A stretch of 64,000 bases of DNA from Gemmatimonadota bacterium (GTDB lineage Bacteria; Gemmatimonadota; Gemmatimonadetes; Palauibacterales; Palauibacteraceae): NCBI GenBank assembly GCA_963666735.1, contig OY762926.1, forward strand, positions 3,392,001 to 3,456,000. Direction: 5' to 3'. The position numbers were made by a program, and so were the translations under genes. Below, in pieces: positions 22,691 to 39,185 of the stretch (the first letter of the stretch is position 1; the number at the start of each line of letters is the position of its first letter). The notes beneath the pieces were generated by a model. It worked only from the letters and a program-made list of their open reading frames with translations, ran no database searches and was not told the DNA's origin.

Positions 22691-25117
22691 ATGGAAGCAC
22701 GTAGTTCCGGCACCTCGGTACCCCTGAGCGGGCGGGTGGTCGAACCATCCATCGCGAACGCGCTCCCGCACTTCGTTCCGCTCGCGATCTTCCCGCTCGT
22801 GGTCTGCGCCGCCATGTACGGCGGCTGGTGGATCGTGGGTCCTCTCGTCTTCTTCATGCTCGCAGGCCAGTTCGACAGGGCCTTCGGGCTGGAGGAGCGG
22901 AACATGGATCCGGCCACCACCCGCGAGAGCCAGCTGTTCCCGTACAAGCTCTCGCTGTGGCTGTGGGCGGCGTTCTGGCCGGTGACGTTTGTATTCTCGC
23001 TCTGGCAGATGCTGGCCGCCGGCCACCTCTCGCTCTGGGAAGTCGGGTTGATGGCCGCCGTGCTCACGACCGTGGCGCAGACGGTCTTCATCGTGGGCCA
23101 CGAACTGGTCCATCGGCGTGCGCTCTGGGAGCGCCGGCTCGGCGAGTTCCTGCTGGCTTCCGTCTCCTACCCGCATTATGCGACCGAGCACGTTTACATC
23201 CATCACCCCCGCGTATGTACGCCGCTCGACCCCGGTTCCGCACCGAAGGGAGTGAGCTTCTGGCAGTACCTGCCCGCGGAGGTGGCGAATAATCTGCTGG
23301 GCGCCTGGCGGTTCGAACGCCGCCGGCTGACGCGCCGCCACCTGCCGCTCTGGCACTACACGAACGCGTTCTGGCGCTACGCCGTGGAAATCGCCGTGTG
23401 GTACGGGCTGATCTTCCGGCTGGGCGGTCCGTGGGCCGCGCTGCTATACCTCCTTCTGTGCGGCAGCGTGGTCTTCTCGATGAAGATCAGCAACTACGTG
23501 CAGCATTACGGGCTTCGGCGCATCCGGATGCCCACCGGCAGGTTCGAGCCGGTCAAGCCGAGGCACGCCTGGAGCGCTGCCTACAAGTTCACCAACTGGC
23601 TTTACTACAACATGCAGCGCCACGCCGACCATCACACGTCAAACCGGCGCTATCCGCTGCTGCAGCATCATGGTGAGGCCGCCTCGCCGCAGCTGCCGGG
23701 CAGTTACATGCAGATGAACGGCCTGGCCCTCTTCCCCAAGCCGTGGTTCGAGACGATCGATCCCCTGCTCGATCGTCAGCGCGCCCAGTTCTATTCCGAG
23801 ATCGACGACTGGAGCGCGTACGACAGCCGCGCGTTCGCGGAGCGCCCCGACGCGTTCGACGTCATCGCCGAGATCCACGCCGCCGCCCCGCGCCTGGCGG
23901 GGTGGATAAACCGCTGGCCGCGACTGCTCGACACGCTGCGGGAGCGGGAATTCACGGACCTGGAACTGCCGGAGGGATTCCTGTCGGATCCGGAATCCGA
24001 GTCGATCGCCCGCTCCGGGTTGGCGCGCCTCTACTGGACGCACGAACTCAGCGTCTCCGAGATGAAGGACCAGCTCGCCGACATCCCCGTGCAGGACGCC
24101 GGCGAGGCGGTCGAGGCGGCGCTGGAGTGGTCGAATGCCAAGGTCTTCCAGGTCGCCGTGCACACGATGCGTCGCAGCCTGTCGGTGAGCGAGGCCGGCA
24201 TGGCGCTGTCGCGCATCGCCGAAGCTTCCATCGCCACCGTGCTGTCGGCCGTTGAGGAAGACTTCGCCGACCGGGGTGTGCCACACACCAGCGGTGGGGT
24301 GGCGGTGGCGGTTCTCGGGCCTCTGGCCGGCGGACAGGCGATGCCGGGGACGGAACTCGATGTCCGGTTTGTTTACGACGGCGGCCCCGCCAGGTACTAC
24401 GAAGCACTGTGCCGCCGCTTCCGCAAGGCGCTCCGTGCGCTGTCGCGCGACAACCTGCTGCTGGTGCCGGTCCCGCGCGGTGGCATCGGCGAGCTCAGTG
24501 CTCTCGATGCGTTCCGGGAACGGCTCCGGAACTCCGATTCGAGCGACGAGCTTGTGGCGCTCGCACGGGCGCGTTGTGTGTTCGTGTCGGGCGATGGCGA
24601 AATTGCGGATCGGTTCACGACGGCGTTACGAGACGCTCTGGGAGGGAGCACAGCTCGCGAGGCGCTGACGGTCGAGTTGCGCGAAGCCGCCGCGAGCGAA
24701 GTTGAGCTGGACCTGCTCTCGGTCGCCGACATGCCCGGCGGACTCCGGGATCTCGAGCGCGCCGCTCTGGCCCTGCAATGGGCGCCCGGCAGCGACGCGT
24801 CGGACACGCTGAACGGCGACCCGGCCTCGGTCTTCCGGGCTGCGGGCAGCCGCGGGCTGATCGCCGAAGATGCCGCGGAGCGGCTGGCGGAGGCGGCGAC
24901 ACTGTGGCGGAACCTGCACGGTTCGCTGCGGCTCATCGCCGACGACGGATTCACCGTCGACGCGGCGACCTCCACCGCAAAGACCGCGATCGCCGATGCG
25001 TGCGGAGTGGACGACTTCGAGACGCTCGCCGCGACGATCCGCGATACCGCATCCCGGGTCGCCGCCGGTCTCGACGCGCTCGTACACGAACCGCACCGTC
25101 CAGCCGACCGGCCGTAG
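22691..25117 (+). CDS. Fusion of an AlkB-type membrane di-iron hydroxylase/desaturase and a degenerate GlnE-like adenylyltransferase module
   Basis: His boxes HELVH, EHVYIHH, NYVQHYG, MQRHADHH; C-terminal half has APRLA...P.LLD.L, VAVLGPLAGG...TELD..FVYD, ALARAR and PGGLRDLE. Confidence 0.8.
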   Translation: MEARSSGTSVPLSGRVVEPSIANALPHFVPLAIFPLVVCAAMYGGWWIVGPLVFFMLAGQFDRAFGLEERNMDPATTRESQLFPYKLSLWLWAAFWPVTFVFSLWQMLAAGHLSLWEVGLMAAVLTTVAQTVFIVGHELVHRRALWERRLGEFLLASVSYPHYATEHVYIHHPRVCTPLDPGSAPKGVSFWQYLPAEVANNLLGAWRFERRRLTRRHLPLWHYTNAFWRYAVEIAVWYGLIFRLGGPWAALLYLLLCGSVVFSMKISNYVQHYGLRRIRMPTGRFEPVKPRHAWSAAYKFTNWLYYNMQRHADHHTSNRRYPLLQHHGEAASPQLPGSYMQMNGLALFPKPWFETIDPLLDRQRAQFYSEIDDWSAYDSRAFAERPDAFDVIAEIHAAAPRLAGWINRWPRLLDTLREREFTDLELPEGFLSDPESESIARSGLARLYWTHELSVSEMKDQLADIPVQDAGEAVEAALEWSNAKVFQVAVHTMRRSLSVSEAGMALSRIAEASIATVLSAVEEDFADRGVPHTSGGVAVAVLGPLAGGQAMPGTELDVRFVYDGGPARYYEALCRRFRKALRALSRDNLLLVPVPRGGIGELSALDAFRERLRNSDSSDELVALARARCVFVSGDGEIADRFTTALRDALGGSTAREALTVELREAAASEVELDLLSVADMPGGLRDLERAALALQWAPGSDASDTLNGDPASVFRAAGSRGLIAEDAAERLAEAATLWRNLHGSLRLIADDGFTVDAATSTAKTAIADACGVDDFETLAATIRDTASRVAAGLDALVHEPHRPADRP

Positions 25118-25138
25118 AGATCGATCACGACACCTGGC

Positions 25139-37841: not shown

Positions 37842-37847
37842 GTCGGA

Positions 37848-39185
37848 TCAGGCCGTCGGGCGCGAAGCCGAGGGGTCGGCGCCGAACGGCATGGCCGCCC
37901 TGTGGAATACCCGTTCCGGATCGAATTCCCGCTTCCAGCGGATGCCCTGCTGGAGCATCTCGCCATAGTGTTCCGCCCACTGAGACGGGTCGTAGCCGAC
38001 GCCGCCCGACAGGTAACTCTTGCCGCCGAGTCCCACGAGCCTTCTGTCGACTTCCTCCAGTTCCCTCACAAACTCGGTCGCCCGCTCATACTGGAACTCA
38101 CCCATCACGGCGAGGATCGAGTATGAGATCGCCCGCTCCCCGGGCGGACGCATTAAGAGCGGCGCCTCGATCGCATCCCTTCCCACCGGATAGAGCCCGA
38201 TCCAGCCCCAGGGCCTGCGCGGCGTCGAGTCCGGGTCCAGCAGCGGCTCGGCGAGCAGCGTCCGTATGGTCTCCCAGGGCAGCAACCAGCCCCTCCACGG
38301 GTGATAGTGCAGCCAGCTGAAGGCCCACGAGGGATACATCCCGGCGCGCCCGACGCTGGCGGTGTCCCTCGTGTAGGCGTGTTCGTCGTGCCCCAGCCCG
38401 TCGAGGAAACCTCCATCGTCGGACGCCTCGTCGTACTCGATGCCGGCGTTGAGGACGATCAGGTTCTCGTGGTGCCGGAGTTCCGCCCGCAGGTGGTCGA
38501 AGCGGTCCGCCTCCACGAGGCGCTCGAGATCTTTCCCGAACCGATCGAAATCGCGGTAGTGGAGCTCGTACTGCCGGAACCGTTCGCCTGCCGGGCGGAG
38601 CCGGATCCATGCCTCGGTGATGATGCCGAACTGTCCCTGGCCACTCCTCACGGCATCGAAGAGTCCCGTGTTCCGAGTAGGCGAGCACCGTACCCGCTCG
38701 CCGGTGCCGGTCACCACCTCGAGTTGTTCGACCTGTCCCGCCTGCGTGCCGTAGCGATGGGAGGTCGTGCCGACCCCTCCGGCGGAGAGCGTGCCGCCTA
38801 CGGTCACCTCGCCCGTGTCCACGAGCACCGGAGGCAGTCGGCGCGTGCCGTTCAGCGTATCCACGACCTTGCCCCACCGCGCTCCGCCCTGCGCGCGCAC
38901 GAGCTCCGGGCTGACGGGCCTGACCCGATCCAGGCACGTCGTGTCGAGGACCACGCCCCGATCCGTCAGACTCTGTCCGCCCTGGGAGTGTCCTCCTCCT
39001 CGAATCGCCAGCCGAATCCCGTCTCGCGAGGCGCAGCGCACGAGCCTCGCCACTTCCTCCACGCTGCGCGGCGTCGCCACGGCTTCCGGCACCCGCCGGG
39101 TCATTCTTCCGAAGTCGCAGGCGCGCGCCTCGCGGTCGTCCAGCTTGCGGGTTGCGCCCGGGAGAAGGTGGTCTTCCTTGGTCAT
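37848..39185 (-). CDS. FAD-linked oxidoreductase, VAO/cytokinin dehydrogenase-like
   Basis: DFG; RGGGHSQGGQS; TVGGTLSAGG; LEVVTGTGE...CS; GQFGIIT; HPW; K..FDP. Confidence 0.85.
   Translation of the reverse strand: MTKEDHLLPGATRKLDDREARACDFGRMTRRVPEAVATPRSVEEVARLVRCASRDGIRLAIRGGGHSQGGQSLTDRGVVLDTTCLDRVRPVSPELVRAQGGARWGKVVDTLNGTRRLPPVLVDTGEVTVGGTLSAGGVGTTSHRYGTQAGQVEQLEVVTGTGERVRCSPTRNTGLFDAVRSGQGQFGIITEAWIRLRPAGERFRQYELHYRDFDRFGKDLERLVEADRFDHLRAELRHHENLIVLNAGIEYDEASDDGGFLDGLGHDEHAYTRDTASVGRAGMYPSWAFSWLHYHPWRGWLLPWETIRTLLAEPLLDPDSTPRRPWGWIGLYPVGRDAIEAPLLMRPPGERAISYSILAVMGEFQYERATEFVRELEEVDRRLVGLGGKSYLSGGVGYDPSQWAEHYGEMLQQGIRWKREFDPERVFHRAAMPFGADPSASRPTA

Follow-up and report, generated by a model that had tools for sequence, protein, structure and literature searches.

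A bromine-free sister of the sponge-derived proteusin clusters in a Gemmatimonadota bacterium and its putative prenylated tris-thiazoline product

The locus described here raises the question of what a proteusin cluster of the srp type produces when its core peptide ends in glycine and not in tryptophan. [quoted passage not shown] SrpI requires the C-terminal tryptophan, and SrpC expressed in E. coli yields mixtures of partly modified peptide (PMC10286304). The cluster analysed here lies within a 64,000-nucleotide stretch of a Gemmatimonadota genome (the window). It is a real cluster built around a tiny three-cysteine peptide, and is a bromine-free sister of this known family from sponge bacteria. 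Every gene listed in a preliminary description of the locus was found as an open frame where it had been placed (Table 1). The profile scores of the cluster genes are far above chance level.

Table 1. Features of the cluster, with positions counted from the first nucleotide of the window
Feature	Position	Strand	Evidence or remarks
AlkB-type membrane di-iron hydroxylase/desaturase with degenerate GlnE-like domain	22691-25117	+	Matches to 8f6t and 3k7d
Deletion scar, ~960 bp	25098..25134	.	Removed the gene of a 291-aa polyprenyl-diphosphate synthase that close relatives have at this point
AcrB-type RND permease, lineage-specific in the sub-type	25139-28342	+	PF00873 E 6e-161
NHLM ABC exporter 2, without peptidase	28387-31329	-	TIGR03797 E 1.3e-193; Walker motifs
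NHLM ABC exporter 1 with C39 peptidase	31317-33545	-	TIGR03796 E 3.5e-255; PF03412 E 6.1e-31
HlyD stub of NHLM adaptor, 68 aa	33547-33753	-	TIGR03794 E 4.6e-5, 40/421 positions
NHLP precursor, 95 aa	33935-34222	+	90-aa leader, LxxxxL (L79-L84), AG cleavage motif, core LCCCG
374-aa protein, ABBA (PT-barrel) prenyltransferase fold	34335-35459	-	Structure model; no Pfam/NCBIfam match
Fused RRE/E1-YcaO cyclodehydratase, cyanobactin TruD/LynD type	35484-37841	-	PF02624 E 2.8e-97 and TIGR03882
CKX-like (VAO/PCMH family) flavoenzyme	37848-39185	-	PF01565 and PF09265; H66, D123, R233 invariant

The precursor matches TIGR03793, the proteusin profile for leader peptides of the nitrile-hydratase-like kind (NHLP), with 73.4 bits (cut-off 50.9), and its C-terminal end reads ELDEERLEAIAAG|LCCCG. 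The AG cleavage site is preceded by L(-12), L(-7), and I(-4), positions that we take to define a double-glycine-type site. The core combines a leucine with three contiguous cysteines within five residues, as in srp, and has glycine in the place of the C-terminal tryptophan of a strict srp core. The LCCCG core is common: it occurs in 36 of 86 precursor homologues, and variants of the LCCC motif have already been published (excerpts of PMC11832590). The last core residue of non-Trp precursors varies between Gly, Ala, Leu, Thr, and Ile. A promoter scan of positions 33400-34500 gave 0 sites, together with one terminator-like site at chance level.

The YcaO protein has LynD (E 1.8e-166), TruD, and MusD as its nearest solved structures. 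It is 64-66% identical to the YcaO proteins of halogenase-bearing LCCCW loci from the same genus, which served as the reference in place of SrpC itself, and by this comparison is a fused YcaO of the SrpC type. Exporter 1 reaches 848.6 bits against TIGR03796, slightly below the cut-off of 853.3, and contains the C39 residues Q31/C37, H110, and D126, including the Cys-His-Asp triad. Exporter 2 reaches 645 bits against TIGR03797, below the cut-off of 709. Thus, the core boundary AIAAG|LCCCG, the LynD/TruD-type YcaO, the two NHLM exporters, and the intact C39 triad of the preliminary description are all borne out. The HlyD stub was absent from the earlier gene list. The adaptor is 296 aa long in loci L002 and L003; the stub matches the L002 protein at 90% over 52 aa, and the same stub is present in L001, L004, L005, and L024.

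The absence of a flavin halogenase and of a SagB-type dehydrogenase, previously stated for the window, extends to the whole genome (one contig, 94% complete). Tblastn searches of the genome with a relative's srp halogenase and with a cluster nitroreductase gave no match, and no halogenase was found at E<=1e-40. The only two PF04820 matches are weak (E 3.5e-8 and 2e-4) and far from the cluster. TIGR03605, the profile of SagB/ThcOx azoline oxidases, has 0 matches in the genome; ordinary PF00881 nitroreductase matches occur away from the cluster. The halogenases of the fetched LCCCW loci contain the published SrpI peptides, both of them exactly in L074 and L077. The view of the locus as a non-halogenated sister of srp clusters is supported.

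The structure of the 374-aa protein was predicted with a pLDDT of 91, and the model has the PT-barrel fold of ABBA prenyltransferases. The comparison with CymD gave a VIA Z of 16.2 and an rmsd of 4.8 over 308 aligned residues; the top 19 rows of the fold comparison are all ABBA prenyltransferases, the following row has a Z of 5.8, and the Foldseek E is 1.8e-6. The identity to solved prenyltransferases is just 6-13%, and a profile of the protein searched against PDB sequences found no prenyltransferase (best E 0.0099, unrelated), so it is the fold that carries the assignment. The protein is a predicted prenyltransferase in this structural sense; a shared fold does not establish a shared function. 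Among 28 non-Trp proteins, 22 of the Trp clade, and 15 of the outgroup, residues R213, R218, K312, H341, K343, K355, Y357, E64, D75, E131, and D133 are near-invariant. Most of the conserved Arg, Lys, His, and Tyr residues are located on predicted barrel strands, which would fit a working active site. The protein is 33-39% identical to its counterpart from the LCCCW clade. A complex prediction with the precursor gave a score of 0.02 and a mark of 0.32, values that count neither for nor against an interaction.

A candidate enzyme for the synthesis of a prenyl donor is encoded in relatives. Blastn against L040 breaks at 6123/7086, at the deletion scar, and the synthase of L024 matches PF00348 with an E of 7e-39. 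An assembly artefact was ruled out as the cause of the missing gene, because an independent contig, from run X1 of another study, bridges the same gap. We compared 28 non-Trp loci with 27 Trp loci. In 5/28 non-Trp loci, the cluster includes a polyprenyl synthase that has the two Asp-rich motifs, as do the clusters of G443, G394, and G041:C3. The synthase is missing here, from the corresponding site of G102 and of one copy in G041, and from all 27 Trp loci, and is thus dispensable.

The best 14 PDB matches of the protein first described as an FAD oxidase are all cytokinin dehydrogenases (CKX). H66, the histidine of the GHS motif, and D123 align with 3s1e chain positions 87 and 151, which correspond to 105 and 169 after an 18-residue offset; D123 is thus opposite Asp169 of ZmCKX1, and His105 is presumably the covalent FAD link. 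In CKX2 and CKX8, the residue opposite R233 is the Glu of FDY(I/V)EG, which we take to be the counterpart of Glu288; position 288 of CKX1 itself is beyond the aligned stretch. H66, D123, and R233 are present in 120/120 homologues, R298 in 119/120, and R237 in 116/120. CKX oxidises N-isoprenyl secondary amines via Asp169-Glu288 (excerpts of PMC9340367). Since the Glu is apparently replaced by Arg, the substrate is probably not a cytokinin-like amine as such, and from its sequence we class the protein as CKX-like but not as a cytokinin dehydrogenase.

The oxidase is found in 17/28 non-Trp loci and 0/27 Trp loci, the latter count holding for the fetched loci with their 10-kb flank. Some of the 11 non-Trp loci without the oxidase are cut short. 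The oxidase and a halogenase never occur together in the 36 genomes of the genus. The oxidase profile matches 8 of 401 genomes of the phylum, and the seven strong matches adjoin an srp-type YcaO. The contrast between Trp and non-Trp loci is essentially one lineage split, so p-values overstate it; a Fisher p of 4e-7 for the oxidase distribution was set aside, as kin are not independent.

The AlkB-GlnE protein matches the AlkB structure 8f6t with an E of 5.7e-50 and GlnE (3k7d) with an E of 1e-4, and contains four His motifs. The AlkB-GlnE gene and the prenyltransferase-fold gene each occur in 13 of the 36 genomes of the genus. All of these belong to the 14 genomes that have an srp-type YcaO, and the count in the other 22 is 0. 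The flanking enzymes travel with the precursor. AlkB is present in 19/27 Trp and 20/28 non-Trp loci. As LCCCW clusters have the ABBA-fold and AlkB-GlnE genes too, these are not peculiar to the non-Trp branch, and the initial view of the whole tailoring set as unusual is not supported. The RND gene is present in 9/28 non-Trp and 0/27 Trp loci, at the same position in G443 and G394 from another family, and the genome encodes paralogues of it at other places (best 68%). Every sub-type comes with transporters of a lipid type, which are RND or MMPL/sterol-sensing proteins, with LolA/MacB in the Trp loci of the genus. A Tat-signal aminotransferase (39354-40547), a choice-of-anchor-B gene, and an acyltransferase were rejected as cluster members because in the genus they are neighbours of either type of cluster; next to the clusters of L004, L005, G443, and G394, no such aminotransferase was found.

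We propose, with a probability of about 0.55, that the cluster makes a tris-thiazoline lipopeptide that is both prenylated and oxidised. YcaO would bind the NHLP leader and close the three cysteines of LCCCG to thiazolines, as suggested by the SrpC/SrpE result and the likeness to LynD/TruD, and the C39 domain, given its triad and the motif, would cleave after AG. The ABBA-fold protein may then attach a prenyl chain supplied by the polyprenyl synthase of the cluster in relatives and by a housekeeping synthase here. The LCCCG core has no aromatic residue, and so the acceptor would have to be a heteroatom, preferably the freed N-terminal amine of Leu1, by analogy with linear cyanobactins; the C-terminal carboxylate is the second choice. 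The CKX-like flavoenzyme might act on the N-prenyl amine, oxidising its C-N bond, and AlkB might oxidise the lipid tail; these are the weakest steps. The RND pump could export the lipophilic product, with the HlyD adaptor reduced to a stub. Cleavage by C39 domains is usually coupled to export, which fits badly with tailoring after cleavage. The pathway would be a halogenase- and cyclase-free counterpart of srp.

The same genes allow for other products. The CKX-like flavoenzyme, which in this sub-type is encoded immediately upstream of YcaO, might replace the SagB dehydrogenase and convert thiazolines into thiazoles, resulting in a tris-thiazole, possibly prenylated. A SagB/ThcOx-like nitroreductase occurs in three loci (L006, L063, and L081), which show no CKX-like gene, and L063 was spanned from AlkB to ABC2; however, n=3, and L081 is just 5.5 kb long. 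A CKX-like gene is not seen in many loci, the 27 Trp loci among them, the nitroreductase is present in 0/27 Trp loci, and a literature search on VAO-family enzymes in the context of RiPPs and thiazolines gave nothing related. We consider thiazole formation unlikely. The oxidase might instead act at the C-terminus, where its arginines would hold the carboxylate and the last residue would become an amide or a decarboxylated end, an end-capping in place of Trp bromination. The conservation of R233, R298, and R237, the location of the first two at the Glu and Leu positions of CKX, and the finding of the oxidase only where the last core residue is not Trp agree with this. The variability of that residue speaks against it, and we know of no CKX chemistry that oxidises an amide N-CH, which makes a C-terminal action very improbable.

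The preliminary description had envisaged a tris-thiazoline/thiazole pentapeptide, possibly a metal chelator or a host-interaction molecule. Its sister-pathway part stands; the bare pentapeptide is less likely, since the ABBA fold, the CKX-like oxidase, and the prenyl-donor synthase of relatives indicate that the product is probably lipidated. An unlipidated chelator, with the other genes as passengers or inactive, would fit the loss of the prenyl synthase and the degenerate GlnE-like and HlyD parts, and adjoining thiazolines serve as metal ligands in known siderophores. Nevertheless, the prenyltransferase-fold gene and AlkB track YcaO in the genus (13/14 each; 0/22 of the others), their products keep conserved residues, and neither an uptake receptor nor a metal regulator is present among the cluster genes scanned. 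The bare peptide is thus quite improbable, and neither a chelator role nor a host-interaction role has positive support.

Both cluster types share one chromosomal site in the genus, and in a rooted prenyltransferase tree the LCCCW proteins are nested inside the non-Trp types. This is a single-gene FastTree tree with a long outgroup branch, and the derived position of LCCCW is a one-gene result. As a tentative joint reading, the widespread and cryptic srp-family compounds of sponge microbiomes may be prenylated lipo-azolines. The non-Trp branch would be older and more diverse, with an undescribed ABBA prenyltransferase clade acting on a non-aromatic acceptor and a CKX-like RiPP tailoring flavoenzyme, and the brominated LCCCW type would be a derived offshoot in which a halogenase and a terpene cyclase took the place of the oxidase.

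A 2025 review describes the sponge NHLP cluster as still cryptic and of unclear role (excerpts of PMC12426817), and a study of four sponges placed its precursors with the most transcribed of the biosynthetic genes (bioRxiv 10.1101/2023.06.09.544420). For the present cluster, the only RNA run, X20 (0.05 of words), was rejected as evidence of expression: its contigs are ~90% alike and belong to a relative, and transcription cannot be read from contigs. Of the 23 listed runs with at least half of the words, four are labelled sponge metagenome (one study; one of the four is a possible source), and the others have coded labels. If the products are prenylated, searches for a bare thiazoline peptide would miss them. 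The compact branch (precursor, YcaO, prenyltransferase, oxidase, C39, AlkB, and optional synthase) offers specific masses to seek and a small set for reconstitution, from which two new enzyme activities could come, the prenylation of azoline peptides at a heteroatom and the oxidation of a peptide by a CKX-like enzyme. Judging by enzyme likeness, the unannotated genes would attach a terpene tail and then oxidise the product, and the cluster is a concrete lead to this compound.

Literature searches for the cores LCCCG, LCCCL, and AGLCCC gave nothing related among the matches listed; the JACS 2021 srp paper may show such cores or annotations. No prenyl or CKX-like functions of srp genes appeared in the titles and abstract openings of the literature searched, which also gave no case of a CKX-like flavoenzyme as a RiPP tailoring enzyme. 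Plant CKX enzymes are the nearest solved relatives of the oxidase across both domains, and the GHS His and Asp169 are kept; in contrast to them, the oxidase has Arg for the Glu of FDY(I/V)EG and HPWR for HPWL, and its gene sits in a RiPP cluster.

The cluster shares with srp the NHLP leader with LxxxxL, the L-CCC-x core, and the fused YcaO, and the fetched LCCCW loci also contain two NHLM exporters, a reduced HlyD, AlkB-GlnE, and the prenyltransferase-fold gene. Unlike in srp, the core ends with Gly, the halogenase is missing, the CKX-like oxidase and the AcrB-type RND protein are present, and relatives of the cluster carry a polyprenyl synthase. An NHLP-fused squalene-hopene-cyclase-like gene, present in 18/27 Trp and 0/28 non-Trp loci, is absent here. 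The LCCC families FAM_01143 and FAM_01149 of mesophotic sponge bacteria similarly have two transporters, YcaO, and an LCCC precursor with variable ends, together with several genes without assigned function; "prenyl" occurs 0 times in the main text (excerpts of PMC11832590). The present cluster has the same combination of two transporters, YcaO, LCCC precursor, and unannotated genes in a sponge-associated bacterium. The linear prenylated cyanobactins (aeruginosamides, muscorides, and virenamides) are short azol(in)e peptides capped by prenyl groups, and N- and C-prenylated azole peptides exist among the aeruginosamides and muscorides (excerpts of PMC7551963). Their PatA/PatG proteases, of which none was found among the cluster genes scanned, are replaced here by the NHLP leader and C39 exporter, and the scores of the ABBA-fold protein are higher with DMATS-type folds (Z 14.5-16.2) than with PatF/PagF (Z 10.8-12.1). 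What the two systems have in common is the pairing of a TruD/LynD/MusD-type cyclodehydratase with an ABBA-fold prenyltransferase.

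All genes listed in the preliminary description are present as open frames in the window, according to the sequence and profile searches, and its claim of an intact C39 triad in the exporter ABC1 was confirmed from the motif residues. The YcaO protein is a complete TruD/LynD-type fusion that retains the ATP-site motifs and the C-terminal PxP. A 68-residue HlyD stub separates ABC1 from the precursor. A search of the whole genome (single contig, 94% complete) found neither an SrpI-like nor a SagB-like gene, which agrees with the earlier statement that flavin halogenase and SagB-type dehydrogenase are lacking from the window. 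The nearest named record, with a precursor identity of 99%, is labelled Ca. Palauibacter. At least half of the window's words are held by 16 of the 23 sequencing runs listed; four of the 16, from one study and with one a possible source of the window, are labelled sponge metagenome, and the other 12 labels are coded.

Coordinates of cluster features, window neighbours and compared loci
Location	Positions	Strand	Feature
Window	33935-34222	+	NHLP precursor, profile score above cut-off; C-terminus AIAAG/LCCCG
Window	34335-35459	-	Gene with ABBA prenyltransferase fold
Window	37848-39185	-	FAD enzyme (oxidase)
Window	25098-25134		~35 bp in place of ~960 bp in relatives
Window	2004-5012		1003-residue protein combining leucine-rich repeats with Ig-like domains; such eukaryote-like repeats are frequent in sponge symbionts
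Window	8916-12198		Low-GC island (0.59-0.63): GmrSD-N/DUF262-type gene, AAA/DUF3696 gene, unknown ORF; resembles a defence locus
Window	14748-15838		Two successive ORF fragments, no Pfam match; apparently a disrupted gene for an outer-membrane or secreted protein
Window	16222-16518		98-residue ORF, Phd/YefM-type antitoxin-like by eye
Window	45072-46211		Class A beta-lactamase-family gene (PF13354, E 1.1e-44)
L002	350-3766, 13925-15898		Phage integrase and Mutator transposase flanking a cluster copy
L004/L005	2450-15400		Non-Trp cluster (Actinomycetota labels), cores LSCSG and LSCCT
L006	7207-15990		Related locus: NHLP precursors (three, whose cores end in RWGFCG, NMGCW and NCW), prenyltransferase-fold gene, YcaO, ThcOx-like nitroreductase, methyltransferase
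L028	5725-6894		390-residue conserved protein adjoining the halogenase in genus LCCCW clusters; no Pfam match, DUF1302 weak in two homologues; LolA-like and MacB/FtsX genes close by
L038	9107-19998		Second, internally deleted cluster copy in one genome, also as L118 (G041:C3)

The gene next to the precursor had no match in Pfam or NCBIfam profile searches, and the ESM Atlas led weakly to prenyltransferases. Its structure, modelled from a 96-row alignment with a pLDDT of 91, was compared with 48,161 chains; the top 19 matches are all ABBA enzymes (Z 10.4-16.2), and the next has a Z of 5.8. The best match is CymD (rmsd 4.8, 308 aligned), and Foldseek agrees, with sequence identities to the matched enzymes of only 6-13%. 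A search at E<=0.001 collected 1,685 representatives, which makes this a large family. Seven basic or tyrosine and four acidic residues are near-invariant across the non-Trp, Trp-clade and outgroup proteins. Loci L057, L058 and L062, which have RCCC cores, carry the prenyltransferase-fold gene in two copies, and the first two also contain two methyltransferases each; no oxidase was seen in the three.

In close relatives, a 291-residue polyprenyl-diphosphate synthase with both Asp-rich motifs is located between AlkB and RND. The window carries a deletion there, and one contig of run X1, whose study differs from that of the possible source run, bridges the same two sides. Two housekeeping synthases are left in the genome. 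The donor synthase adjoining an ABBA-fold gene is the best fold-independent support for prenyl chemistry. The synthase is also absent from G102, one G041 copy, L004 and L005, and is therefore not essential.

Precursor cores were tabulated against tailoring genes at 72 places (17 from genomes, 55 from metagenomes) after the exclusion of L006, L007 and L038; 17 places were dropped (16 without a precursor in the fetched stretch, one mixed), and the others have 27 Trp-ended and 28 non-Trp cores. The halogenase (14/27 Trp versus 0/28 non-Trp) and an NHLP-fused cyclase-like gene (18/27 versus 0/28) accompany Trp cores, whereas the CKX-like oxidase (0/27 versus 17/28), methyltransferase (0/27 versus 9/28), polyprenyl synthase (0/27 versus 5/28) and AcrB-type RND (0/27 versus 9/28) accompany non-Trp cores. 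MMPL (10/27 and 12/28) and AlkB (19/27 and 20/28) occur with both. Truncation affects many of these loci, and near-duplicates occur among them. Selection of the metagenome set relied on the prenyltransferase, and the count of that gene in this set is therefore not an independent one.

Cleaner data came from searches across the entire genomes of 36 members of the genus. A YcaO match occurs in 16 of them: srp-type (at least 64% identity) in 14 and distant (37-39%) in two. The oxidase is present in six genomes, exactly those with a YcaO 79-100% identical, and a close halogenase in seven, each with a YcaO of 64-66%; an eighth halogenase match (44%) lies in a genome without YcaO. Oxidase and halogenase co-occur in none of the 36. 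AlkB and the prenyltransferase are each found in 13 genomes, always among the 14 srp-type YcaO holders, the one exception for each being a fragmented assembly. In the phylum, the oxidase profile matched 8 of 401 genomes; seven strong matches adjoin YcaO, and around the eighth (31%), 9 kb of sequence contains no cluster gene. The same gene arrangement, including LCCCG, synthase and RND, recurs in two genomes of another family. The flanking enzymes thus co-occur with srp-type YcaO, and the locus, genus and phylum counts together identify AlkB and the prenyltransferase as core to the whole srp-like family, the oxidase as a mark of the non-Trp branch, and RND as limited to the window's sub-type.

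We infer the chemistry from the genes, motifs, fold and co-occurrence observed directly, and give its outline a probability of about 0.55, with the doubt mostly on the oxidase. The three cysteines of LCCCG would be converted to thiazolines, as SrpC does on LCCCW (PMC10858898, PMC10286304), and cleavage would occur after AG. Since the core contains no aromatic residue, the prenyl group would be placed on a heteroatom, most likely the Leu1 amine, for which PMC7551963 provides a precedent; ABBA enzymes modify RiPPs with or without a leader (PMC12715784). The FAD enzyme may perform a CKX-type oxidation adjacent to the prenylated nitrogen, AlkB may oxidise the tail, and RND would export the product.

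The best 14 PDB matches of the FAD enzyme are all cytokinin dehydrogenases, and they span both domains. In the alignment with ZmCKX1, D123 is positioned at Asp169 and H66 at His105; CKX oxidises an N-isoprenyl amine via an Asp169-Glu288 pair (PMC9340367). H66, D123 and R233 are retained in all of the best 120 of 312 homologues, and R233 takes the Glu position of the CKX2/CKX8 motif FDY(I/V)EG. Three loci with a SagB-like gene instead of the oxidase speak for a thiazoline dehydrogenase, a reading that we consider unlikely; a C-terminal capping enzyme is less likely still. Both functions are compatible with prenylation. A bare chelator, a variant of the chelator role raised in the preliminary description, is improbable as well.

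Among 86 precursor homologues, the cores end in LCCCG (36, the window's own cluster among them), LCCCL (12), LSCCL (6) and LCCCW (1), which shows that LCCCG is no singleton; the search is biased to the query's relatives, so LCCCG and LCCCW frequencies cannot be ranked from this count. Earlier reports describe 107 proteusin clusters in which the LCCC motif is conserved, the ends vary and genes of unknown function are present (PMC11832590), a set of 343 precursors, accompanied by YcaO in 116 cases and by a halogenase in 66 (bioRxiv 10.1101/2023.06.09.544420), and proteusin clusters in the window organism's order (PMC10469786); related literature includes PMC9426513 and PMC12426817. The accessible part of PMC13290415 does not mention the LCCC/srp family, and 10.64898/2026.08.03.742642 excludes RiPPs from its scope.

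Both cluster types in the genus are located between a choice-of-anchor-B gene and a Tat aminotransferase, and are alternative cassettes at one chromosomal site. Identities across the types are 82-94% for AlkB, ~65% for YcaO and ~38% for the prenyltransferase. The prenyltransferases of the LCCCW type group as a single clade (SH-aLRT 100) on a long branch, and rooting on 15 distant homologues places it inside the non-Trp diversity, which suggests, from one gene and one split, that the LCCCW type may be derived. The L004/L005 prenyltransferases nest with strong support among Gemmatimonadota copies, as would be expected if the cluster had moved from one phylum to the other; ~3 kb off is a gene of the SAM hydroxide adenosyltransferase family. 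The flanking integrase and transposase, and a shortened RND gene, suggest that the L002 copy is mobile. The deletion in the second copy (L038/L118) extends from the N-terminal third of YcaO to HlyD, with the YcaO domain, prenyltransferase and precursor gone; a methyltransferase is situated upstream of its oxidase, and a third AlkB-synthase-RND piece (L117) is located elsewhere.

Published SrpI peptides are present in the halogenases of the LCCCW loci, which makes these loci genuine relatives of srp. The window cluster, without Trp and SrpI, falls outside strict srp but probably works in the same way in the first steps. The srp-like family and its core variation are already published; this analysis contributes the CKX-like oxidase, the prenyl synthase that relatives carry inside the cluster, and the exchange of cassettes.
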